Shown: in pieces, positions 2,464 to 25,448 of the stretch | Layout: every line of letters starts with the position of its first letter | How positions within the stretch are numbered: position 1 is the stretch's first letter | DNA from: an uncultured Bacteroidales bacterium | GTDB taxonomy: Bacteria > Bacteroidota > Bacteroidia > Bacteroidales > Muribaculaceae | NCBI GenBank assembly: GCA_902784675.1 | Contig: CACZVR010000003.1 | Span: 9,899-73,898 of the forward strand | Direction of reading: 5' to 3' | DNA length: 64,000 nt | The notes under the pieces: generated by a model | Database searches by the model: none | Seen by the model: only the letters and a program-made list of their open reading frames with translations | What the model was told of the DNA's origin: nothing | Position numbers and translations under genes: made by a program

Positions 2464-3429
2464 ATGAGAAAAATCGTGATTCTTGACGGATATGCCGGCA
2501 ACCCCGGAGACCTCTCTTGGGAACCGATGCGTGCCCTTGCACCCTGTGACATCTATGACTTTGGCACCGCCGACACCGTGGTTGAGCGTTGCCGTGACGC
2601 CGAGATGGTGTTGACCAACAAGGTCCCCATCACTGCCGAGGCCATCGCCCAGTTGCCCGAGCTCAAGTACATCGGCGTGATGGCGACAGGCTTTAACGTT
2701 GCCGACGTCGCCGAGGCTACCCGTCGCGGCATCGTCGTGACCAACGTGCCGGCCTACAGCACCGACAGCGTCGCCCAACTCACCATTGCCCACTTGTTGA
2801 ACATCTGCTGGCAGCCCCAGCACTACACCGACGAGGCCCGAGACCTGAAGTGGACCAACTGTGGCAGTTATGCCTATTTCAACACCCGCCTCATCGAGCT
2901 GGCCGGCAAGCAGTTGGGCGTTGTGGGCATGGGTAACATCGGCAGTGCTGTGGCGCGCATTGCCCAGGCGATGAACATGCGTGTGATGGCCTTGACCAGC
3001 AAGAGTCCCGACCAGTTGCCCGCAGGCGTCATCAAGGCCGACAACATCGAGCACCTGCTGCGCACCAGTGACGTGCTGACCCTTCATTGCCCGCTCAACG
3101 CCGACACGACAGGCATGATCAACGCCGAGCGCCTGGCCATGATGAAGCAGGGATCCATCGTGCTCAACCTGGCACGTGGTGCCCTCATCGTGGAACAAGA
3201 TCTGGCCGATGCTTTGAACAGCGGACACTTGTACGCCGCCGCCATCGACTGCACCGCGGTCGAGCCGCCTGCTGCCGACCACCCGTTGCTCACGGCCCGC
3301 AACTGCTATATCACGCCTCACATCGGTTGGACCAGCTATGAGGCCCGTGTGCGCCTGATGGATGTCATCACCAGCAATGTCGCTGCCTATCTTGACGGCA
3401 AACCCGTGAACGTTGTCAACAACAAGTAA
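2464..3429 (+). CDS. D-2-hydroxyacid dehydrogenase (glycerate dehydrogenase/HprA-like)
   Basis: GVVGMGNIG NAD motif, LHCPL, NLARG, TPHIGW. Confidence 0.92.
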   Translation: MRKIVILDGYAGNPGDLSWEPMRALAPCDIYDFGTADTVVERCRDAEMVLTNKVPITAEAIAQLPELKYIGVMATGFNVADVAEATRRGIVVTNVPAYSTDSVAQLTIAHLLNICWQPQHYTDEARDLKWTNCGSYAYFNTRLIELAGKQLGVVGMGNIGSAVARIAQAMNMRVMALTSKSPDQLPAGVIKADNIEHLLRTSDVLTLHCPLNADTTGMINAERLAMMKQGSIVLNLARGALIVEQDLADALNSGHLYAAAIDCTAVEPPAADHPLLTARNCYITPHIGWTSYEARVRLMDVITSNVAAYLDGKPVNVVNNK

Positions 3430-9027: not shown

Positions 9028-9636
9028 TCACAAGGCGAATTCCATCAAGCGGGCCAGGTACTTGCCGATGATGTCAAACTCCAGGTTCACCACGGTGCCC
9101 ACCTCGATGCAATGGAAGTTGGTGATCTCGCGGGTGTAAGGGATGATGGCGACCTGGAAACTGTCGCGTTCGCTGTTGCACACCGTGAGCGACACGCCGT
9201 TGACGGTGACACTGCCTTTCTCGACGGTGACATAGCCCTTGCGTGCCATCTCGGGCGCCACCTCATACTTGAATGTGAAGTAGTGGCTGCCGTCCACCTC
9301 CTTGACGTCGGTGCAGACGGCCGTTTGGTCCACATGGCCCTGGACGATGTGTCCATCCAGGCGTCCCTCGATGAGCATCGAACGTTCCACATTCACCTCG
9401 TCGCCCACCTTGAGCAGGCCCAGGTTGCTGCGGTCCAGCGTCTCCTGGATGGCGGTCACGGTGTAGGTGCCGTCGCCAGGTAGTTCCACCACCGTGAGGC
9501 ACACGCCGTTGTGCGACACGCTCTGGTCAATCTTCAACTCATCGGTGAAACTGCACTTGAGCGTGATGTGCAGGTTACCGCCGTCTTTACGCAATGCGAC
9601 GACGCGCGCCGCTTCTTCTACGATTCCTGAAAACAT
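9028..9636 (-). CDS. ribE: Riboflavin synthase
   Basis: MFSGIVE start, NGVCLTV, GHIVQGHVD, NGVSLTV. Confidence 0.97.
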   Translation of the reverse strand: MFSGIVEEAARVVALRKDGGNLHITLKCSFTDELKIDQSVSHNGVCLTVVELPGDGTYTVTAIQETLDRSNLGLLKVGDEVNVERSMLIEGRLDGHIVQGHVDQTAVCTDVKEVDGSHYFTFKYEVAPEMARKGYVTVEKGSVTVNGVSLTVCNSERDSFQVAIIPYTREITNFHCIEVGTVVNLEFDIIGKYLARLMEFAL

Positions 9637-9887
9637 AGTATATCTGTTGTGTTGTTTGTTGTTTCGTTTTGTCTAATAATTTGACAATGATATAGTTGCT
9701 GGTCCAACCCCTGCGGGGCTAATGCTAATTACACGAATTCAACCAATTTAATGCGAATTCATAAATTCTTTCGTGCAATTGGCTTCGCCGAGCTAAAGGT
9801 TCGCTTATTTAGCGAAATTGGCATTAAAAAAAACTTTCAGGGTCAACTCCTATATCGTTCCCAATAATTAACGCAGTGCGTTTGCCT

Positions 9888-11258
9888 TTATTGCCCACGG
9901 GCGACGTTGTCGCGTGCGGCATTCTGGAATTTGAAACGCTGCATGATGACCACGGCGACCACGAAAGCGACAAAATCGCTGGCGGGCAGCGAGAACCACA
10001 CGCCGTCGAGGCCCCAAATCGAGGAAAACAGCAACAGCATGGGCAGCAGGAAGAGCAACTGGCGCGAGAGCGACATGAAGATGCTCACGCGCACCTTGCC
10101 TATGGTCTGGAAGAAATTGGTCACCACGGCCTGATAGCCGATGACTGGGAAGACGAGCATGTTGATGCGGATGCCGCGGATGGAGATGGCCAAGAGTTCC
10201 TGGTCGTCGGTAAACAGGCGTGTGCACGGCCCGGGCAACAATTCGCCGATGATCCAGCCGACGGTCATGGCAATCACCGATGCGGTGATGGTTAACCGCA
10301 GCACATGCTTGACGCGGTCCATGTTGCGCGCACCGTAGTTATAGCCGGCAATGGGCTGGAAGCCCTGACAGATACCCATGATGACCATGAAGAAGATGAA
10401 GCCCAAACGGTTAGCGATGCTATAGGCGCCCACGGCGAGGTCGCCGCCATAGGTCATCAGGGCGTTGTTCATGAAGATGGCCACCACGCAGCCGGTGAGC
10501 TGCATGGCAAACGGCGAGACACCGATGCTCACGATGTCCTTGACAATGTTGCGGGCAGGCACGAGGAAACGCCATTCCAGGTGCAGCAGTTCGCGCTGGC
10601 GGCTGAACTGCCACAGCTGCCAGCACAGCACAATGGCCTGTGCCAAGATGGTGGCGATGGCGGCGCCCTTGATGCCCATGTGCAGCGGCCAGATGAAGAT
10701 GGGGTCAAGGATGGTGTTCAGCACCACGGTGACTATGGTCGCTATCATCGCGGCTCGTGGCTTGCTCGCCGACCGCAGGGCGGCATTCAGACCCAGATAA
10801 AGGTGGGTGATGACGTTGCCCACCAGCAGGATGAACATGTAGTCGTGGGCATGAGGCAGCGTCTGCTCGCTGGCGCCGAAGAAGGTGAGGATGGGGTCCA
10901 AGAAGATGATGGACACGATGCCCACCAGCAGACCGGTGATGATGTTCAGGGCGACCATGTTGCCCAGCACGTTGTTGGCCTTGTTGTACTGGCGTTGTCC
11001 CAATCGCAACGACATCAGCGTGGAACCGCCCACGCCCACCGCTGCGCCAAAGGCAGCACCGATGTTCATCAGCGGGAACGAGATGCCCAGGGCGGCCAGC
11101 GCCATCGGGCCCACGCCGTGGCCGATGAAGATGCTGTCCACCATGTTGTAGAGCGATGATGCGGTCATCGCAATCACACCGGGCAAGGCATACTGCCACA
11201 GCAGTTTGCCCACCGGCTGGGTGCCCAGAGCCAATGTCGCTTCCTTGTTATCCTTCAT
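9888..11258 (-). CDS. MATE family efflux transporter
   Basis: LYNMVDSIFIG, ILDPIFI, GIKGAAIAT, QPIAGYNYGA; multi-TM. Confidence 0.95.
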   Translation of the reverse strand: MKDNKEATLALGTQPVGKLLWQYALPGVIAMTASSLYNMVDSIFIGHGVGPMALAALGISFPLMNIGAAFGAAVGVGGSTLMSLRLGQRQYNKANNVLGNMVALNIITGLLVGIVSIIFLDPILTFFGASEQTLPHAHDYMFILLVGNVITHLYLGLNAALRSASKPRAAMIATIVTVVLNTILDPIFIWPLHMGIKGAAIATILAQAIVLCWQLWQFSRQRELLHLEWRFLVPARNIVKDIVSIGVSPFAMQLTGCVVAIFMNNALMTYGGDLAVGAYSIANRLGFIFFMVIMGICQGFQPIAGYNYGARNMDRVKHVLRLTITASVIAMTVGWIIGELLPGPCTRLFTDDQELLAISIRGIRINMLVFPVIGYQAVVTNFFQTIGKVRVSIFMSLSRQLLFLLPMLLLFSSIWGLDGVWFSLPASDFVAFVVAVVIMQRFKFQNAARDNVARGQ

Positions 11259-16615: not shown

Positions 16616-17335
16616 ATGTCACTTGAAGTCGGTTTATACTTGATTCCCACACAGTTGAGCGAGGGGCCGCTGGAGCGGGTGTTGCCTGCGTACAACACAG
16701 AGGTTGTGCGTCAGGTGCGCTTTTTTGTTGTTGAGAGTCTGCGATCGGCAAGACGTTTTCTCAAGAAATGTGACCGCGAGATCGACATCGACGCCCTCAC
16801 GTTTAATGAGCTGAACGAGCACACCGACGTGCGTGTCACTGCTGCCCTGGAGGCCTTGTTGGAGCCGATAGGGCGGGGTGAGCCGGTAGCTGTACTCAGC
16901 GATGCCGGGTGCCCTGCGGTGGCCGATCCGGGTGCCGACCTGGTTGCCATCGCTCAGCGCAAGGGGTACAAGGTTTTTCCGCTGGTGGGTCCGTCAAGCA
17001 TCTTGATGAGTCTGATGGCATCGGGGTTCAACGGTCAGCGCTTTGCCTTTGAGGGCTATCTGCCCATTGACGCGCAGGCCCGTCAGGCGCGCTTCAAGGA
17101 GATGGTGCGACGCATCGAACGCGAGCGCCAGACGCAAATTTTCATCGAGGCGCCCTATCGCAACAACCAGCTCATTGCCGACTTGACCCAGCGCCTATCT
17201 CCCGCCATGCGGTTGTGTGTGGCGAGCGACATCACGGGTGAGGGTCAGACCATCGTCACACGCACCCTGGCCGAGTGGAAGCAGGCGAAGTATGACTACC
17301 ACAAGGTCCCCACAATTTTCTTATTGTATCAATAA
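16616..17335 (+). CDS. Tetrapyrrole-methylase-fold SAM methyltransferase (RsmI-like paralog)
   Basis: LYLIPT, SDAGCPAVADPG, GPSSI, FIEAPYRN. Confidence 0.88.
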   Translation: MSLEVGLYLIPTQLSEGPLERVLPAYNTEVVRQVRFFVVESLRSARRFLKKCDREIDIDALTFNELNEHTDVRVTAALEALLEPIGRGEPVAVLSDAGCPAVADPGADLVAIAQRKGYKVFPLVGPSSILMSLMASGFNGQRFAFEGYLPIDAQARQARFKEMVRRIERERQTQIFIEAPYRNNQLIADLTQRLSPAMRLCVASDITGEGQTIVTRTLAEWKQAKYDYHKVPTIFLLYQ

Positions 17336-17348
17336 CGTCAATCATCCC

Positions 17349-18377
17349 ATGGCAGGACACAAATATAAAGGATACACCAACGACGGACGTCCGTTGAAGA
17401 TAGCGTTTGATGTGGACGGCGATGACACGCCGCCCGCACAGCCGATGGTCGAGCCGAGCATCCCCTTCACCTATGACACAGGGGCGGGGAAGGGCTTGTG
17501 CTTCATCAGCTTCGGCAGTGGCAGTAGCGGCAACTGCGCCTATCTGGGTACTCCGCGTGGCGGCATTCTCATCGATGCCGGCATCCGTGAGCCTGTCAAA
17601 TATCACCGCAAGAAAAAGAACCCCGACAATCAGGTTGCTATCACTCTGGATCAGGCTTTTGCCGAGCTTGAGCGCAACGGCGTGTCGCAAGACATGGTGA
17701 AAGGCGTCCTGCTCACGCATGCCCATCAGGACCACATGCGGTGCCTGTATCCCGCCGTGAGCCGTTGCCACTGCAGCGTGTACTGCACCATGGGCGTGAT
17801 GGCTCAACTGCAGCAGCGATGCCGCATCTCAAGCCGCATCCGCGACCACCATGTGCCCATCTTCAAAGAGATTCCTTTCCGCATCCTGGACATGGAAATC
17901 ACAGCTTTTGAGACCAAACATGATGTCAAGAGCGTGGGTTTTAGCATTGAGTATGAGGGTGAGCGTTTTGTTGTGGGGTCGGATATGGGCTCCATCACCG
18001 AGCGCGCCGCTTATTACATGAGCCGCGCCAATTACCTGATGATTGAGTGTGACTATGACCTCAAGAAGCTTGAGGAAGGCGGTTACTCGGAATTCTTGAA
18101 AAACCGTGTGAAAAAAGACGACGGGCACCTGGACAACGTGGTGGCTGCCCGGTTTGTCGCCGACCATTACCATGAAGGCCTGCGCAACGTGTTCTTGTGC
18201 CACTTGAGCGAGAAGAACAACGACCCCGCGCTGGCGTTAGCCACGATGCGCGAGGCGCTGGAGGCGCGAGGTCTCACCGTCGGAGATGCATCTAACGCAG
18301 CCGACCAGCGTGACCGTAACGTCCAGATCTACGCCTTGCCCCGTTATACCTCTTCCGATTGGTTCGTTTTGGCTTAG
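17349..18377 (+). CDS. MBL-fold metallo-hydrolase (YycJ/PhnP-like)
   Basis: SGSSGN, IDAG, THAHQDH, GHLDN, LCHLSEKNN; ATG at 17349. Confidence 0.88.
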   Translation: MAGHKYKGYTNDGRPLKIAFDVDGDDTPPAQPMVEPSIPFTYDTGAGKGLCFISFGSGSSGNCAYLGTPRGGILIDAGIREPVKYHRKKKNPDNQVAITLDQAFAELERNGVSQDMVKGVLLTHAHQDHMRCLYPAVSRCHCSVYCTMGVMAQLQQRCRISSRIRDHHVPIFKEIPFRILDMEITAFETKHDVKSVGFSIEYEGERFVVGSDMGSITERAAYYMSRANYLMIECDYDLKKLEEGGYSEFLKNRVKKDDGHLDNVVAARFVADHYHEGLRNVFLCHLSEKNNDPALALATMREALEARGLTVGDASNAADQRDRNVQIYALPRYTSSDWFVLA

Positions 18378-20412: not shown

Positions 20413-21114
20413 CTATTTTGTCGCTCTCTCCAGATAGAGGTTGTAGAGCCATTCGTCCTGCTCGGCCAGGGTCATGTGCGAGTTGTCGAGCACCTCAGCG
20501 TCATCGGCCTGGCGCAGAGGACTCTCTTTGCGCGTGCTGTCGATGCGGTCGCGCTCGGTGACGTTGATCAATACCTCCTCAAAGGTCGTTGTCATGTCGC
20601 CTTTGGCGCGCAATTCGTCAAAGCGACGTTGGGCGCGCACCTCGGCGCTTGCCGTGGCAAACACCTTCATTTCGGCGTCGGGGAACACCACCGTGCCGAT
20701 GTCGCGGCCGTCCATCACCAGACCCTTGTCCTTGCCCATGGCCTGCTGCTGCTTGACCATCGCCTTGCGCACAAAGCCGATGGCAGCGATGATGCTCACC
20801 ACGTTGCTCACGCGCATTGAGCGGATGTAGCGCTCCACGTTGCGGCCGTTGAGCACGGTCACGCTCTTGCCCTCCTTGGTCGGGCGGAAGGTGATGGCGA
20901 TGTCGCCACGTTTGAGGTGCTCCTTGAGCGCCTTCTCGTCCACCTTGTCACCGTGGATGAGTTTGTTGCGCAACGCGAACAGCGTCACCGCGCGATACAT
21001 CGCACCCGTGTCCACATAGGCGTAGCCAATCCTGCGCGCCAGCGCCTTGGCCATCGTGCTCTTGCCCGTTGATGAATGCCCATCAATCGCAATCGTAATC
21101 TTCTTCTGTGCCAT
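20413..21114 (-). CDS. cmk: Cytidylate kinase
   Basis: [32 protein letters not shown]; ATG at 21114. Confidence 0.97.
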
Positions 21115-21366
21115 AATATCTGATGTCCAATGTTGATTTCCGCCACAAAGATAATCAAATTGCACTCACACAGTGTTTTTTTTCTGTAAAAAACACTTAT
21201 GAGTGTGTGGTTTGGCTCTTTTCACGTTTGGTCATTTGTGTCTGTATAATAGTGCAAATAGCTACGATAATTGATACAGTACACAAAATGGTGGATTTTT
21301 TTGTGATAAACTTCACCGAGATAAGGAAGGCATTAGATCTGTTGAACCCAGGAAACTCTATTTTAA

Positions 21367-21412
21367 AAAAAGAAAGCCCTCACAAACCAGCTAAAATAGC
21401 CTCTGCAAGGGT
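21367..21412 (-). terminator. Intrinsic terminator of the acidic-ORF transcript
   Basis: Minus strand CCCUUGCAGA...UUUGUGAGGG stem followed by CUUUCUUUUUUU. Confidence 0.75.
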
Positions 21413-21428
21413 ACCCTTATTTTTAATA

Positions 21429-21536
21429 TGTCTTGGCTCCGAGCCTACTCCTGCCAGCTTTCGCTGCTTCAGGAGCCGCACGTTTCACAGCAGTGGGATT
21501 CACATCTTAGAGCGCTGTTCCCGTGCAACGAGGACA
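21429..21536 (-). ncRNA. Candidate structured RNA in 3' UTR (family unknown)
   Basis: GC-rich segment in AT-rich DNA with stems GUUGCACG/CGUGCGGC, ACAGCG/UGCUGU, CUCCUG/CAGGAG, CAGC-GAAA-GCUG and GGCU/AGCC. Confidence 0.55.
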
Positions 21537-21542
21537 ATCGAT

Positions 21543-21869
21543 TTAGTCGTCATCGTCGTCATCATCGTACTCGCAGTCTTCCTCATCGTAGTCCTCGACG
21601 TGCAGTGCCACAAGAATTTCAGAGCCATTCCAGTCGTATGTGACGTCTTCCCAATCTTCAAGGGCATCGTCAAGTGTTGACTCGATGTCGTCATCAGTTA
21701 CATCACCCATCTCGGAGTAATCCCAACTGATGCAGACTTCATAAATTGCACCATCGCCGTCGGGTGAGATGCCCTCGCGATCGACACTGATGAAATCATA
21801 CTCATCAAACGCGCTTTCGATGTCGCTCAAAAGCTCTGCGCCAAGTTCATTTAATTCGTTCCAGTCCAT
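21543..21869 (-). CDS. Small hyper-acidic protein (108 aa)
   Basis: MDWNELNEL...DDDDDDD; about 43 D/E, one R, no K; has its own promoter and terminator. Confidence 0.8.
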   Translation of the reverse strand: MDWNELNELGAELLSDIESAFDEYDFISVDREGISPDGDGAIYEVCISWDYSEMGDVTDDDIESTLDDALEDWEDVTYDWNGSEILVALHVEDYDEEDCEYDDDDDDD

Positions 21870-21877
21870 AATAGAAT

Positions 21878-21938
21878 CTGTTGGTCCTTGATTGTTACTT
21901 CTATTTTTGGCACAAGGACCTTTTGCTGCCAATAACAG
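21878..21938 (-). promoter_or_regulatory. H-type pseudoknot in 5' UTR
   Basis: UUGGCA/UGCCAA stem whose loop GGUCCUUG pairs with downstream CAAGGACC; flanking CUGUU/AACAG. Confidence 0.6.
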
Positions 21939-21996
21939 GGGTAATTTCATCCTTTGAAATGTGCTAATCAAAATAATGAATTGCTATATTCTATCA

Positions 21997-22013
21997 TGCA
22001 AAAATCATGCCAA
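21997..22013 (-). promoter_or_regulatory. Sigma-54 (-24/-12) type promoter
   Basis: TTGGCATGATTTTTGCA: GG-N10-GC spacing, close to consensus TGGCACG-N4-TTGC. Confidence 0.65.
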
Positions 22014-22169
22014 CTCTATATTAAACACTAAAAAAGTAAAATGAATTGAAGTGATGAAGTTGGAACATTTCAGAATTTTTGCAGTTGTTCTTAAAAACTG
22101 GTCAATTCCCTTGGACCGTATGTTGATTTTTTCTATATTTGCATTTCAAATTCTATAACTATTACCAAC

Positions 22170-23651
22170 ATGGAAGATTCTAAAACAATAGTTGACGTCT
22201 TATTTGACGAAATGCATTTTTTGTATAAAAAATGTTCAGACTTAAGGGAATACATGAAATCTCTGTCTGTGCCTTCAAAAGAATTGAACAGCCTTTATAA
22301 AAAGATAGGGGAATTAGACGATTGTATGAGTCTGATTAGAGTTCATCAGGAATTAAAGAATACAAGCCTTCAAGAAGTTGATTTCTATTCCAAATTCAAA
22401 AAGCATTTTTATAAAGATAAAGCCAATAAAGAAGTTCGTTTTATTGTTATAGATGGTCTTGAGAATGAAGAGGATGACTTGAATGATGCTGAACTGTTGA
22501 AACGATATGTCATTGAGAATAATTCAAGTGTTGCTGATAAACTAGATAAAGAAGAAGAGGAAGAACTCAAAAAGCAATTCACGATTAAAAATTGTTTGCC
22601 TGTAATGGAGTTGGTTCCGATTCAATTTGCAAGCAACGCAAGAAAGTATATGCCTCCTGGTACCATTGTGACAGTGACTCTCCGAAAAACAGAAAAAAGA
22701 AATTTCATCACTGTTTCTAATTTGGGACCTCGAAGTGAGCAGGATGAAATGAATAAGATTTTAGAAGAAGGAGGACGTGGCAAGAACACGTCAATCGTAA
22801 GAGGCATGGGGCTGGGATTGAAGCAGGTGAAAGAGATCTTGAACATGCACAGGGATTGGTTGGACACTGCATTTGACGTCGACCAAAATGAGAATGATTT
22901 TCTTTACGAGAATATTCATTACTCGATGTTTACGGTCAAGTTTACCTATCTCAATGGTGAAAACGAACAATCAATTAACACCGATTATTTGGATTGGAAT
23001 GAAGACTTCTGGAACGACGATATTCCGATAGTGATTGTGCATAATATGTTCACGGTTTCTTATGATTTAAGGAAATTATGTGAAAACAAATTAATCTCAC
23101 TCAAATTGTCAGAGGATAATGATAAAGAGGAATGGAAACTTATTTTAGAAGAATTACGCATGGTAATTAGGCGCTTCGATGACACGCTTCGTCAATGTTT
23201 GTATAAGGTATATTTAGAACAAAACGATGACGAACTCGTGGATGCGATTATGGGAAATGAATGTTCGGTGAGTCTACATAAGGTCGTGTATAGAACCTTT
23301 GAGAGCTTGGTAAATACACTATATTCAAACAAGAATATTGATTATGATCCCCAAGTGAATGAGGCCCTGAAGAGCATAGATGCTCACAGTTGTTTCTATT
23401 CTTTTATTTATGGTGTTTTTTCTTTGATTCTTGAACGGGCACCAAAGGGTTCGTTTTTTGAAATCACCTATGAAGGCGGCCGAAAGGATAACCAGATTAC
23501 AATAAAATGTGAGCAATGCAATTTTAAGGGCATTTTTTATGAGAGTGCTTCAGAGCTAATCAAAAATAGAGTGCATATGTATAAAGATATGTTAGCAGAA
23601 TGGAATGGAGCATTTATTATTCAAGAGCATGCGTTAAAAATAAGATTATAA
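22170..23651 (+). CDS. Cytoplasmic histidine-kinase-like protein, tandem duplicated (intact HATPase plus degenerate copy)
   Basis: N-box SNARKY, G1 VSNLGP, G2 GMGLGL; no TM or sensor domain; second half starts at IVHNM; TATATTTG promoter at ~22134. Confidence 0.75.
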   Translation: MEDSKTIVDVLFDEMHFLYKKCSDLREYMKSLSVPSKELNSLYKKIGELDDCMSLIRVHQELKNTSLQEVDFYSKFKKHFYKDKANKEVRFIVIDGLENEEDDLNDAELLKRYVIENNSSVADKLDKEEEEELKKQFTIKNCLPVMELVPIQFASNARKYMPPGTIVTVTLRKTEKRNFITVSNLGPRSEQDEMNKILEEGGRGKNTSIVRGMGLGLKQVKEILNMHRDWLDTAFDVDQNENDFLYENIHYSMFTVKFTYLNGENEQSINTDYLDWNEDFWNDDIPIVIVHNMFTVSYDLRKLCENKLISLKLSEDNDKEEWKLILEELRMVIRRFDDTLRQCLYKVYLEQNDDELVDAIMGNECSVSLHKVVYRTFESLVNTLYSNKNIDYDPQVNEALKSIDAHSCFYSFIYGVFSLILERAPKGSFFEITYEGGRKDNQITIKCEQCNFKGIFYESASELIKNRVHMYKDMLAEWNGAFIIQEHALKIRL

Positions 23652-23653
23652 TT

Positions 23654-24454
23654 ATGGACAAAAACAAGCTGAAATTAATAGAGCCAGTTAAAACGGCTTG
23701 GGAAATAATTAAAACCATATTTGTTGTGATTACGGCTATTGGCGTAATTGCGGGAATAATAGCAGATTGGGCTGGATTATGGGGCGAAATTACAAAATAT
23801 TTTCATGTGATTTTATCTGTTGTTTCAATAATATTGGCTATTATCGTAGTGTGTCAGTATTTTGCATACAAGAATAATCTGAAAAAGGTGAAAGATGCGT
23901 TGAATGAAGCAAAAGGATCCGATAGTCAGAAAATAGCAAAAGAATTACCTAAAGATATTAAAAGGAAGTGTCGTGTGTTGATTGTTGATGATAATGATAC
24001 TGCGTTGAAGGAGATAGAAACAGAACTCGAGAGCGGCATTAGCCAAAAAAAGATGCATCTTGTTTCTATCAATAGAATCCCAGATTATCGATTGGCTGCT
24101 GACTTTGACATTATTATCAGTGATATTTATGGAGCAGGTAGTGGCGCCAAAGAATCAATAGGTGCTCTAAAAGCTATCAAAGAAGTATTTCCGTATAAGA
24201 TTGTTGCTGCGATATCACAAAATACAGACAAAGAAACAAAGTCCAAGCTTGATGTCGTTTTATCTAAGAAAAAGAAAAATGTAATAAAAGATTTTGTTGA
24301 AACATCAATAAAAAGGCTTGATAATTTAGAAACCTTTATTCAAGGAGTTGAACTTGAATTAAAGGACAAGGGTCTAAATGATGAAGAAATAAAGACCAAA
24401 CGAGAGGAGTTTTTGGATTATCTTGAGAGAATGAAACGCTTAGCTGGTAACTAA
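23654..24454 (+). CDS. Two-TM membrane protein with response-regulator receiver domain
   Basis: Two N-terminal hydrophobic helices; RVLIVDD, DIIISDI (phospho-Asp), AAIS, LSK. Confidence 0.8.
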   Translation: MDKNKLKLIEPVKTAWEIIKTIFVVITAIGVIAGIIADWAGLWGEITKYFHVILSVVSIILAIIVVCQYFAYKNNLKKVKDALNEAKGSDSQKIAKELPKDIKRKCRVLIVDDNDTALKEIETELESGISQKKMHLVSINRIPDYRLAADFDIIISDIYGAGSGAKESIGALKAIKEVFPYKIVAAISQNTDKETKSKLDVVLSKKKKNVIKDFVETSIKRLDNLETFIQGVELELKDKGLNDEEIKTKREEFLDYLERMKRLAGN

Positions 24455-24504
24455 AGAGGATAATACACAGTCATTTTATTGTTGAATGACGATTGAATAA
24501 GATA

Positions 24505-24540
24505 AATTAAGTGCCCTTCAATCAAGTCGGGCACTTAATT
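24505..24540. terminator. Bidirectional terminator
   Basis: AATTAAGTGCCC...GGGCACTTAATT between convergent island units. Confidence 0.8.
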
Positions 24541-24565
24541 TTTAATTGTTTTTTAGAAAACAGCT

Positions 24566-24778
24566 CTAACTCATTTTGTGGTAGACTTCGTCTGGGTAAT
24601 CATTGCAATTCTCGCAATACCATCCGTCGTCAGTCCACTCAAGTTCTTCACCACAATCTCCGCATGTAGCGATGTCATATTCACCGGCTAAATCTTCATA
24701 GCAACTTGTGCAGCATTTTCGGTCCGCATCGTTTACCTCCCCACAATTGGGGCAAACATAATAGTGTGTTGTGAACAT
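24566..24778 (-). CDS. Small acidic double zinc-ribbon protein (70 aa)
   Basis: CPNC, CTSC, CGDC, CENC: four CxxC pairs. Confidence 0.75.
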   Translation of the reverse strand: MFTTHYYVCPNCGEVNDADRKCCTSCYEDLAGEYDIATCGDCGEELEWTDDGWYCENCNDYPDEVYHKMS

Positions 24779-24841
24779 AATAAAAATGCAATAATTTATA
24801 TGATTAAAAAAGTATCTTAAGAATTACGCTGACAGTAATAC

Positions 24842-25060
24842 TTAATGGTTATTACTATAATCTATTATGTCGTTGTAACCCTCACGTTCGTCACTCTCGT
24901 AGTCGCTCTCGTCGTCGTCATCGTCACAGGGCTCTATACCGAGGTCTTCTTTGTAATTCTCATAATCCATACAGATTTCGCAGTTCATGAAGTCATCATG
25001 GTCGCAATTGCAGAAATCGCCATAATTGTTGTCACAATCATCACAAAGGCACCAACTCAT
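24842..25060 (-). CDS. Small Cys/Asp-rich protein (72 aa)
   Basis: WCLCDDC..FCNC..CEIC, poly-Asp tail; AT-rich leader before ATG. Confidence 0.7.
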   Translation of the reverse strand: MSWCLCDDCDNNYGDFCNCDHDDFMNCEICMDYENYKEDLGIEPCDDDDDESDYESDEREGYNDIIDYSNNH

Positions 25061-25069
25061 AAATTAAAA

Positions 25070-25219
25070 TATTTAGGTTGCCTCACCCCCAAAAGAGGCT
25101 AGTAAATAATTGAAAAGAAAAGTATTGGGGCATTACTTTCCTGCTGTCACAGTTCTTGGTGAAAAATCCGCATCAGTTTGAAAGGGGCAGATCTCATCCT
25201 AAGAACACTTGCAAAATTA
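25070..25219 (-). promoter_or_regulatory. Bacteroidota -7 promoter and structured 5' leader
   Basis: TAATTTTG at 25219-25212; long hairpin 25206-25152; two hairpins with complementary loops CCCCAA/UUGGGG. Confidence 0.55.
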
Positions 25220-25448
25220 GGAAAACTTTTATTATTGCACAACTTTTGGTTGTAATTATTAACTAAAAAGTAAAAAAAACGAATAAGCCACAAAGCTTGG
25301 CAGGGGCGGCAGGGAATGCGTGCACTCAATGAATCACAACTCCAAAGCGTCAGTCCTATCAAAACACAATATATGTGTATTTCTTTTTGTCATTTTTCGG
25401 GTGAGAGCGGGGTTGGGTTGAGAGTTTTTTTGTAAGTTTGCGGCAAAA

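Follow-up and report, generated by a model that had tools for sequence, protein, structure and literature searches.

A rare, mobile kinase–receiver gene pair in a low-GC island of an uncultured Bacteroidales bacterium, and its likeness to the Detocs defence system

The window analysed in the current study is a stretch of 64,000 nucleotides (nt) from an uncultured Bacteroidales bacterium of the Muribaculaceae (GenBank assembly GCA_902784675.1, contig CACZVR010000003.1, positions 9,899 to 73,898 of the forward strand). Its subject is a pair of adjacent genes, for a histidine-kinase-type protein and a membrane-bound receiver protein, lying in an island of low guanine plus cytosine (GC) content at positions 21166–25448. 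The GC content of this island is 0.368, against 0.544 across the remaining window, and its edges are sharp (500-nt windows from about 21750 to 25250 have a GC content of 0.30–0.39, those on both sides 0.53–0.61). It is bordered on the left by cmk (20413–21165, minus strand; Pfam Cytidylate_kin, 3e-64), and on the right by genes for two small lipoproteins and then for a polyprenyl synthase (25449 onward, plus strand). Five open reading frames (ORFs) lie between these borders, encoding an acidic protein of 108 amino acids (aa), the kinase (493 aa), the receiver protein (266 aa), and proteins of 70 and 72 aa. The ratio of nonsynonymous to synonymous substitution (dN/dS) against relatives was 0.05–0.21 for the four ORFs tested, indicating purifying selection; because of these values, and of the protein homologues found for the acidic ORF, all five are regarded as real genes.

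An earlier reading of this DNA, made by a model from the letters alone and referred to here as the original prediction, had described an AT-rich island with a central plus-strand operon (a soluble kinase-like protein, then a receiver with two membrane-spanning segments) and with minus-strand ORFs for small hyper-acidic or Cys-rich proteins. The base composition, the ORFs, the hydropathy and the predicted folds all agree with this description, and the small ORFs proved to be genuine coding genes. Pfam and NCBIfam scans also bore out its statement that the island encodes no integrase and no DNA-binding output domain. The island and the two core genes are located as follows.

21166..25448, no strand: low-GC island, delimited by GC contrast and by a junction that is empty or otherwise filled in congeners
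22170..23651, plus strand: core gene 1, soluble tandem histidine-kinase-core protein, 493 aa (Pfam, AlphaFold2 model, alignment)
23654..24454, plus strand: core gene 2, receiver protein with two transmembrane helices (2TM-receiver), 266 aa (hydropathy, AlphaFold2 model, alignment)

The kinase carries a recognisable HATPase_c domain (Pfam, 9.2e-08; 32.9 bits against a cut-off of 26.4). Its AlphaFold2 model, built from 31 family sequences (predicted local distance difference test score, pLDDT, 87; predicted template modelling score, pTM, 0.84), contains two consecutive histidine-kinase cores. Module 1 is modelled as a helical hairpin (residues 7–60) and an ATP-binding catalytic (CA) domain (68–261), and module 2 as a hairpin (272–351) resembling the dimerization and histidine phosphotransfer (DHp) domain, followed by a degenerate CA-like domain (354–492). 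Residues 1–265 superpose on the DHp and CA cores of HK853, CpxA, WalK and MprB (Z score 13–15), and residues 268–493 on the kinase-related domain of plant phytochrome (Z 13). HisKA of Pfam gave no match to the kinase at E values up to 1, and the matches in NCBIfam were partial, covering the CA domain with at most 30 bits against cut-offs of at least 290 bits.

Residues N156, K159, Y160, N184, G186, P187, R203, G204, G212, G214, G216, H227 and H291 are invariant in all 31 kinases. Most of them lie in module 1, in the N box (N156/K159/Y160), a G1-like box (N184-x-G186-P187) that opens with Asn where Asp is usual, the pair R203-G204, and the G2 box (G212-x-G214-x-G216). No ATP-box residue is conserved in module 2 in the same alignment. 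As for the histidines, H16, which occupies the canonical acceptor site on helix 1 of module 1, is unconserved among the 31 sequences; H59, at the end of the first hairpin, is kept in 28 of them; and H291, midway along the opening helix of the hairpin in module 2, is present in every one, with N, D or E as the next residue. As judged from the alignment and the model, the ATP site and the conserved histidine are sorted into separate kinase cores of one chain. This split-function, single-chain kinase is the most unusual feature of the module, and would lend itself well to studies of directional (trans) autophosphorylation.

The receiver gene begins 2 nt after the end of the kinase gene, so that the two form one plus-strand operon. 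Two hydrophobic windows, centred near residues 27 and 58 and flanked by Lys-rich stretches, are seen in the hydropathy profile of its product, and the layout of the protein consists of transmembrane (TM) helices at about 18–38 and 49–72, a linker, a receiver domain at about 104–225 and two C-terminal helices. Because the Lys-rich stretches flank both hydrophobic segments, the receiver domain is expected on the cytoplasmic side. The AlphaFold2 model shows a (beta-alpha)5 fold followed by the two helices, and matches CheY-like domains with Z scores of 12–13 and a root-mean-square deviation of about 2 Å over 110–125 aligned residues. In the numbering of this protein, D112, D113, D157 and K205 are invariant across ten aligned partners, with S or T at position 189, so that the full residue set of a receiver (acidic pair, phospho-acceptor Asp, Ser/Thr and Lys) is retained. 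There was no match to Response_reg of Pfam at E values up to 1, and neither domain scans nor the model revealed an enzymatic or DNA-binding output on the receiver protein. By these profile comparisons, neither the kinase nor the receiver protein belongs to any named family.

A complex prediction for the kinase and the receiver domain scored 0.35, against 0.00 for the best control. Of 80 solved complexes, 58 reach the mark applied to such predictions, as do 2 of 110 mismatched pairs; at 0.60 or below, it is reached by only 7 of the 80 and by both mismatches. At least 93% of contacts were shared between runs, and the pLDDT of the partner was at least 78. Since kinase-regulator complexes have already been solved, the pass may reflect likeness to them only, and the prediction gives weak support to a contact between kinase and receiver.

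The closest homologues of the pair, with 70–89% identity for the kinase and 47–83% for the receiver, all lie at the same site between cmk and the lipoprotein and polyprenyl synthase genes. They constitute one vertically related lineage and are therefore uninformative on functional linkage. More distant relatives were obtained by a profile search of 1.84 billion representative proteins, which yielded 28 clusters of the kinase family at 1e-30 or below and 62 at 1e-10 or below; most of these matches are 440–500 aa long and align across both modules. The pair was found at 25–40% identity in six further unrelated contexts (loci L008–10, L019, L020, L021/22, L025 and L026/27). In all of them the two genes are adjacent, with 2 nt between them or with the stop codon of the first overlapping the start codon of the second. 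When all fetched loci were searched with profiles, a receiver gene of this type lay directly downstream of every family kinase for which sequence was available there. The same searches detected no conserved third gene travelling with the pair.

The distribution of the pair is sporadic. It was absent from all 36 other genomes of the same genus, which is a large one within the Bacteroidales, and none of 400 other genomes of the order gave a match at 1e-20, a figure obtained with four candidates scored per genome, so that weak members may have been missed. Scans of viral contigs with the kinase profile returned ordinary membrane kinase/OmpR pairs only. The pair is known so far from Bacteroidales and from unassigned metagenome contigs, and the names of the samples suggest that the related contigs come from rumen metagenomes. 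In each of the eight loci measured, the GC content of the pair was below that of its flanks (0.28–0.43 against 0.41–0.53). The neighbours differ from context to context: at L008–10 the pair is adjoined by an insertion sequence (IS) transposase, a DUF5053 gene and a PIN-like fragment, and at L019, in a Bacteroidales UBA1217 genome, it lies between a glutamate-synthase-like gene and a signal peptidase gene. At L025, a locus within a capsule-type gene cluster, the 2TM-receiver gene (9342–10033) is split into ORFs of 84 and 142 aa next to an intact kinase gene, which may represent a frameshift or an inactivated effector.

Synonymous divergence (dS) gave further information on mobility. Between the window and locus L005, dS was 1.6–2.1 for kinase and receiver, compared with 0.63 for cmk and 1.2 for a small ORF and the polyprenyl synthase gene. 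Between the window and L001, the kinases share 70% of their residues (dS 2.7) and the receivers 59%, and dS for the 70-aa gene was 0.15. The divergence of the pair (1.6–2.7) thus exceeds that of the flanking genes (0.15–1.2) in both comparisons, indicating allele replacement by recombination, and the pair is swapped as an allele independently of its neighbours. Taken as a whole, kinase and receiver constitute a rare, mobile two-gene signalling unit.

The function of this unit was considered in the light of known systems. In Detocs (DtcA/DtcB/DtcC), a kinase and a receiver-effector defend against phage, and a minority of the effectors are transmembrane; mutation of the kinase histidine or of the receiver aspartate abolishes defence (Rousset et al., bioRxiv 10.1101/2023.01.24.525353). 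The present pair resembles Detocs in combining a histidine-kinase-type protein with a receiver fused to an effector that does not bind DNA. The logic proposed for it is also similar, i.e. infection would lead to autophosphorylation, transfer to an aspartate and activation of the effector. The pair is best read as a Detocs-like defence or conflict module with a membrane effector, to which a probability of about one half is given.

In the mechanism proposed under this reading, module 1 of the kinase would use ATP to place a phosphoryl group on His291, in module 2 of the same chain or of a dimer partner. The phosphoryl group would then move from His291 to Asp157 of the receiver, which is predicted to be anchored in the inner membrane. 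On the model of Detocs and of the TM effectors known from CBASS, Pycsar and type III CRISPR, phosphorylation of the receiver might drive oligomerisation of the TM hairpin and so damage the membrane, and the damage would halt growth of the infected cell (abortive infection).

Several features set the pair apart from Detocs. The Detocs detection rule calls for three genes, including the stand-alone buffer receiver DtcB (bioRxiv 10.1101/2023.01.24.525353). The present unit has two genes and no buffer receiver, with one receiver-type ORF per locus. DtcA has an N-terminal tetratricopeptide repeat sensor followed by the kinase core, whereas the kinase described here starts with the hairpin and CA domain and carries its extra core at the C-terminus. 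In DtcC the receiver is N-terminal and the effector C-terminal; here the TM region precedes the receiver, and there is no hydrolase domain. No Detocs model was among the PADLOC matches at E values up to 1 for the window or 0.01 for the family, the Detocs content of the library being unconfirmed. The module works, on the reading preferred here, like a stripped-down Detocs and yet is not a member of that system.

Small signal-gated TM effectors are known from CBASS (2TM and 4TM), Pycsar (PycTM) and type III CRISPR (CARF-TM) systems. Like the receiver protein, these combine at least two TM helices with a cytoplasmic signal-receiving domain and have no enzyme domain, but their signal-receiving domain binds nucleotides and that of the present protein is a phosphorylatable receiver. 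The PADLOC models PycTM, CARF_TM and 2TM gave faint matches to the receiver family (E 0.0004–0.5), which reflect hydrophobic segments and are no evidence of homology. Classical two-component systems (HK853/RR468, CpxA, WalK) share with the pair the core seen in module 1 and the CheY-like receiver fold, and module 2 superposes on the histidine kinase-related domain of plant phytochromes (Z 13), which, like DivL, is an example of a degenerate kinase-related domain. The layout differs from the classical one in that the kinase is soluble and the receiver membrane-bound, and in that each chain of the kinase holds two cores with complementary losses.

The PADLOC search proposed with the original prediction yielded, for the pair, weak domain-level matches to a single candidate, PDC-M43, whose models were the sole ones of the defence library to be matched by both genes. 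PDC-M43B was matched by 28 of the 31 family kinases (best 2.2e-14) and PDC-M43A by 2 to 4 of the 10 receivers. In the window, residues 155–248 of the kinase correspond to positions 237–334 of the 347 in PDC-M43B (1.1e-08), and residues 83–206 of the receiver to positions 56–183 of the 203 in PDC-M43A (4.7e-04). The proteins are longer than these models, the kinase having 493 residues and an extra second module, and the receiver 266. The PDC systems of PADLOC, PDC-M43 among them, are candidates derived from guilt-by-embedding (Payne et al., bioRxiv 10.1101/2024.01.29.577857). It is named in the main text of no paper and appears as a supplementary table entry only, as a candidate cassette.

Known or candidate defence genes adjoin the pair at two loci. 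At L020 it directly follows a type II methyltransferase and a restriction enzyme (PADLOC 3.7e-86 and 4.4e-84). At L025 it follows PDC-M31A/B (2.2e-68), an AbiJ-like Abi_C protein and a PDC-S01 fragment, and precedes an IS66 TnpB gene. The original prediction had proposed a phosphorylation-triggered membrane effector of conflict or anti-phage type. The conserved pairing in unrelated contexts, the sporadic low-GC distribution, the two defence contexts and the PDC-M43 matches are consistent with that part of it, which they support indirectly.

A number of observations weigh against a defensive role. The lack of a buffer receiver has been mentioned. Defence neighbours occur in two of about seven contexts, a proportion taken from few loci, mostly on short contigs. 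At L019 the pair sits amid housekeeping genes, and the hotspot in which the window copy lies also takes SusC/SusD cargo. Values of dN/dS for the pair (0.07–0.21) gave no sign of diversifying selection, and the PDC-M43 matches cover generic ATPase and receiver domains only. The two-helix anchor need not form a pore and could merely localise a signalling receiver. Finally, His291 is taken as the phospho-acceptor from its position and invariance only, and His59 is also 90% conserved.

A more specific form of the preferred reading is offered tentatively. It holds that kinase and receiver form a defensive two-component system of two genes, not described before, in which module 1 would be catalytic, the His-bearing pseudo-kinase module 2 would also sense infection, and the phosphorylated 2TM-receiver would oligomerise into a membrane lesion. 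If this is true, phosphorylation of a receiver domain would be the direct switch of a pore-type effector, and a single polypeptide would permanently link the two partners that in ordinary kinases meet as a trans-phosphorylating dimer. To our knowledge, Detocs is so far the sole experimentally supported defensive two-component system; if the pair defends against phage, it would be a minimal, membrane-acting addition to this class. It would also come from Bacteroidales, probably of rumen or gut, whose immune repertoire is poorly charted.

The best-surviving alternative to the defensive reading, though an unlikely one, is that the pair is an accessory signalling unit without a role in defence, in which the soluble kinase senses a cytoplasmic cue and the anchored receiver regulates a membrane process by contact, with no killing. 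CheY and DivK are single-domain receivers that act by protein-protein contact. No toxic domain is recognisable in the receiver described here, purifying selection acts on both genes, and the neighbours at L019 and L026 are housekeeping genes. Metabolic cargo is also taken up by the hotspot. Such a role fits poorly, however, with an extremely sporadic distribution, a low GC content in every context and allele replacement. It fits no better with the restriction-modification, Abi and PADLOC-candidate genes and the IS elements that adjoin the pair in several contexts, and no conserved third partner travels with the pair to be regulated.

It is less probable still that the pair is an addiction module, with the 2TM-receiver as a latent membrane toxin that the kinase keeps off through phosphatase or kinase activity, so that a cell losing either the kinase or the locus dies and the island is stabilised. 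The tight coupling of two genes of which the second encodes a small membrane protein would suit this role, as would the mobile, sporadic distribution, the PIN-like fragment next to the pair at L008 and the split receiver beside an intact kinase at L025. Nothing in this evidence sets such a module apart from defence, however, since many abortive-infection systems behave as toxin-antitoxin pairs. A tandem kinase of 493 aa would also be large for an antitoxin, and no plasmid context was found among the loci.

The remaining genes of the island were considered as possible partners of the pair. They comprise three small ORFs and one decayed coding segment, all on the minus strand.

21543..21869, minus strand: neighbour gene, 108-aa hyper-acidic protein with 43 D/E and 1 K/R (homologues of 61–100% identity)
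21429..21542, minus strand: decayed zinc-ribbon coding sequence of the acidic protein (alignment with L029)
24566..24778, minus strand: neighbour gene, 70-aa acidic double-zinc-ribbon protein with 9 Cys (Pfam DZR, 3e-06)
24842..25060, minus strand: neighbour gene, 72-aa Cys- and Asp-rich protein with 26 D/E and 8 Cys

Apart from the window, its closest relative, L029, is the one locus in which the acidic gene adjoins the pair. Members of its family occur without the pair at L030 (84% identity), where the homologue adjoins a radical S-adenosylmethionine (SAM) gene, a DDE transposase gene and a helicase gene, and at L031/L032 (61% identity). Viral contig scans gave no match to the family. The acidic proteins of L029 (P0166) and P0169 run on into a CPxC...CxxC zinc ribbon. 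In the window the corresponding segment is a relic: relative to L029 (1485–1931), GAA has become TAA, TGG has become a second TAA, and 1 nt is deleted. The family members P0167, P0170 and P0171 are also without the C-terminal ribbon.

The 70-aa protein shows 83–97% identity in the syntenic relatives (dN/dS 0.05–0.08). The 72-aa protein shows 82–83% by protein alignment, with 76% for L003 by tblastn (dN/dS 0.06). Both ORFs were found in the syntenic lineage only, downstream of the pair, and profile searches of all fetched loci did not detect them in any of the six other contexts. For the 70-aa protein, a search of 300 genomes of the family returned the window's own genome and one weak match only, and in the metagenome collection it was confined to the syntenic relatives. 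The 72-aa protein matched no family in Pfam, PADLOC, NCBIfam or the ESM Atlas, and an ESM Atlas feature search with both Cys-rich proteins returned generic zinc-ribbon clusters only, with scores below 0.9. The DNA of L001 at 2751–3065 is 97.7% identical to the window at 24570–24880, the region of the 70-aa gene, indicating a mosaic locus. With a dS of 0.15 for this gene and of 2.7 for the kinase in L001, a recombination breakpoint must separate the 70-aa gene from the pair. Moreover, the small proteins do not co-evolve with the receiver, because they are 76–97% identical where the receiver drops to 47%.

It was also observed that the pattern CxxC-x(5-6)-W-(x)-D-G-x-aromatic-x-C-x-x-C is common to the relic ribbon of the acidic gene and the second of the two ribbons in the 70-aa protein. 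On this resemblance, the island's small acidic proteins may be distantly related.

The original prediction had assigned the small proteins, together with structured RNAs, to one five-gene system in which they would serve the pair as sensors, antidotes or nucleic-acid mimics. This is very improbable: although every syntenic relative has the 70-aa and 72-aa genes alongside the pair, the acidic gene stands beside it in the window and L029, and all three small proteins are acidic with zinc-ribbon character, the co-occurrence is confined to a single chromosomal site in one vertical lineage, the small genes are missing from all six other contexts of the pair, the acidic family occurs without the pair, a breakpoint lies between the receiver and 70-aa genes, sequence conservation differs as described, and the claims of RNA structure are mostly unsupported. 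The small acidic and zinc-ribbon genes are separate neighbours and no part of one system with the pair. The original prediction had been staked both on the kinase, receiver and small ORFs recurring together and on the pair not matching an ordinary characterised two-component family. For the small ORFs it is refuted, as they were not found with the pair outside its own lineage. For the pair it stands, as kinase and receiver do recur together elsewhere and matched no characterised family.

Ten other species of the same genus (loci L058–L067) were compared at the junction between cmk and the lipoprotein gene (21165/25449 in the window). In five of them (L058, L061 and L065–67) cmk directly abuts the lipoprotein gene. 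In L059 and L060 about 7 kb of other DNA is inserted, comprising SusC/SusD-type genes in the former, and a glycosyltransferase-radical-SAM gene with unknown proteins in the latter. The junction is rearranged or holds larger insertions in the other three. At L021 a 34%-identical version of the pair is present at the same right-hand junction, with a radical-SAM gene alongside. The junction is therefore a variable site, or hotspot, in the genus. The island is composite cargo of three independent units, and the alternative that the original prediction had itself allowed, a cassette hotspot holding unrelated genes, describes it better as a whole. An integrase-borne element was considered and rejected, there being no integrase, and flanking direct repeats being no better than chance-level short matches. 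These findings call for caution, since what looked like a tidy five-gene system with RNA cassettes is a hotspot of three unrelated units, and a supposed RNA is a decayed coding segment.

Signals for transcription in the island were examined by pattern search and folding, and three are located as follows.

22134..22141, plus strand: Bacteroidetes-type -7 motif TATATTTG, 29 nt upstream of the kinase ATG (pattern search)
21997..22012, minus strand: sigma-54-type -24/-12 element TGGCAT-N5-TTGCA, upstream of the acidic gene (exact match)
24504..24541, no strand: bidirectional terminator hairpin with a perfect stem of 13 base pairs (bp), a 12-nt loop and T-runs on both sides

A second TAnnTTTG motif was found at 25212–25219 on the minus strand, 152 nt upstream of the 72-aa ORF; the pattern occurs 34 times in the window, against 20.8 expected. 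From their position, the two motifs are plausible promoters of the kinase operon and of the 72-aa gene, and the 72-aa and 70-aa genes are probably co-transcribed from the TAATTTTG motif at 25212–25219. The sigma-54-type element is the single exact match in the 64-kb window and forms a 16-nt block of identity with L029, the one relative carrying this region, within poorly conserved flanks. No enhancer-binding ATPase is encoded near it. A generic sigma-70 promoter scan was discarded, its model being unsuited to Bacteroidetes.

The hairpin at 24504–24541, between the convergent units, folds with a z score of -4.06 on the plus strand and -4.90 on the minus strand, and none of 200 shuffled sequences folded as well. 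A generic terminator scan revealed no excess of terminators, and this hairpin is the single convincing one of the island. Of the promoter and terminator that the original prediction had given to each of the three units, promoter-like motifs thus precede all three, but a terminator is convincing only at this position.

The RNA-structured cassettes of the original prediction for the most part did not hold up. Rfam gave no match between 20000 and 27000 at E values up to 1, and the pseudoknot leader (z -1.8), the multi-stem 3' block (z -1.5) and the 145-nt leader (z -1.0) folded no better than shuffled sequences in minimum free energy (MFE) folding, which cannot score pseudoknots. A structured 3' RNA at the 108-nt GC-rich block 21429–21536 was rejected, this block being the relic zinc-ribbon coding sequence of the acidic protein. 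RNAalifold, applied to the leader of the 72-aa gene in four loci, gave one invariant 8-bp hairpin with zero compensatory pairs. The CCCCAA/UUGGGG loop-loop pairing proposed before this gene becomes CCCCGA/UCGGGG in L003, a single compensatory change (A-U to G-C) seen by eye among three distinct sequences. In the hairpin at 21878–21938 (minus strand) in the leader of the acidic gene, the stem GGCA/UGCC is replaced by GGUG/CACC in L029, a double compensatory change (by eye). The second stem of the pseudoknot proposed for the same leader has a mismatch in L029, two sequences being compared. Such covariation, in two or three sequences, lends limited support to the pseudoknot and loop-loop pairings that had been proposed.

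Two further groups of genes were noted in the surroundings. Radical-SAM genes recur, at the hotspot loci L021 (8284–9702) and L060 (1210–2553) and beside the acidic homologue at L030 (8080–9357), and two of the three have a glycosyltransferase-like N-terminus. Their identification as viperins was rejected, the pVip matches being confined to the radical-SAM core. A gene of the metallo-beta-lactamase fold lies in the window at 17217–18377, and its homologues in L002 and L003 carry a faint Pfam annotation as Anti-Pycsar Apyc1; its position is conserved throughout the genus, and a housekeeping role is probable.

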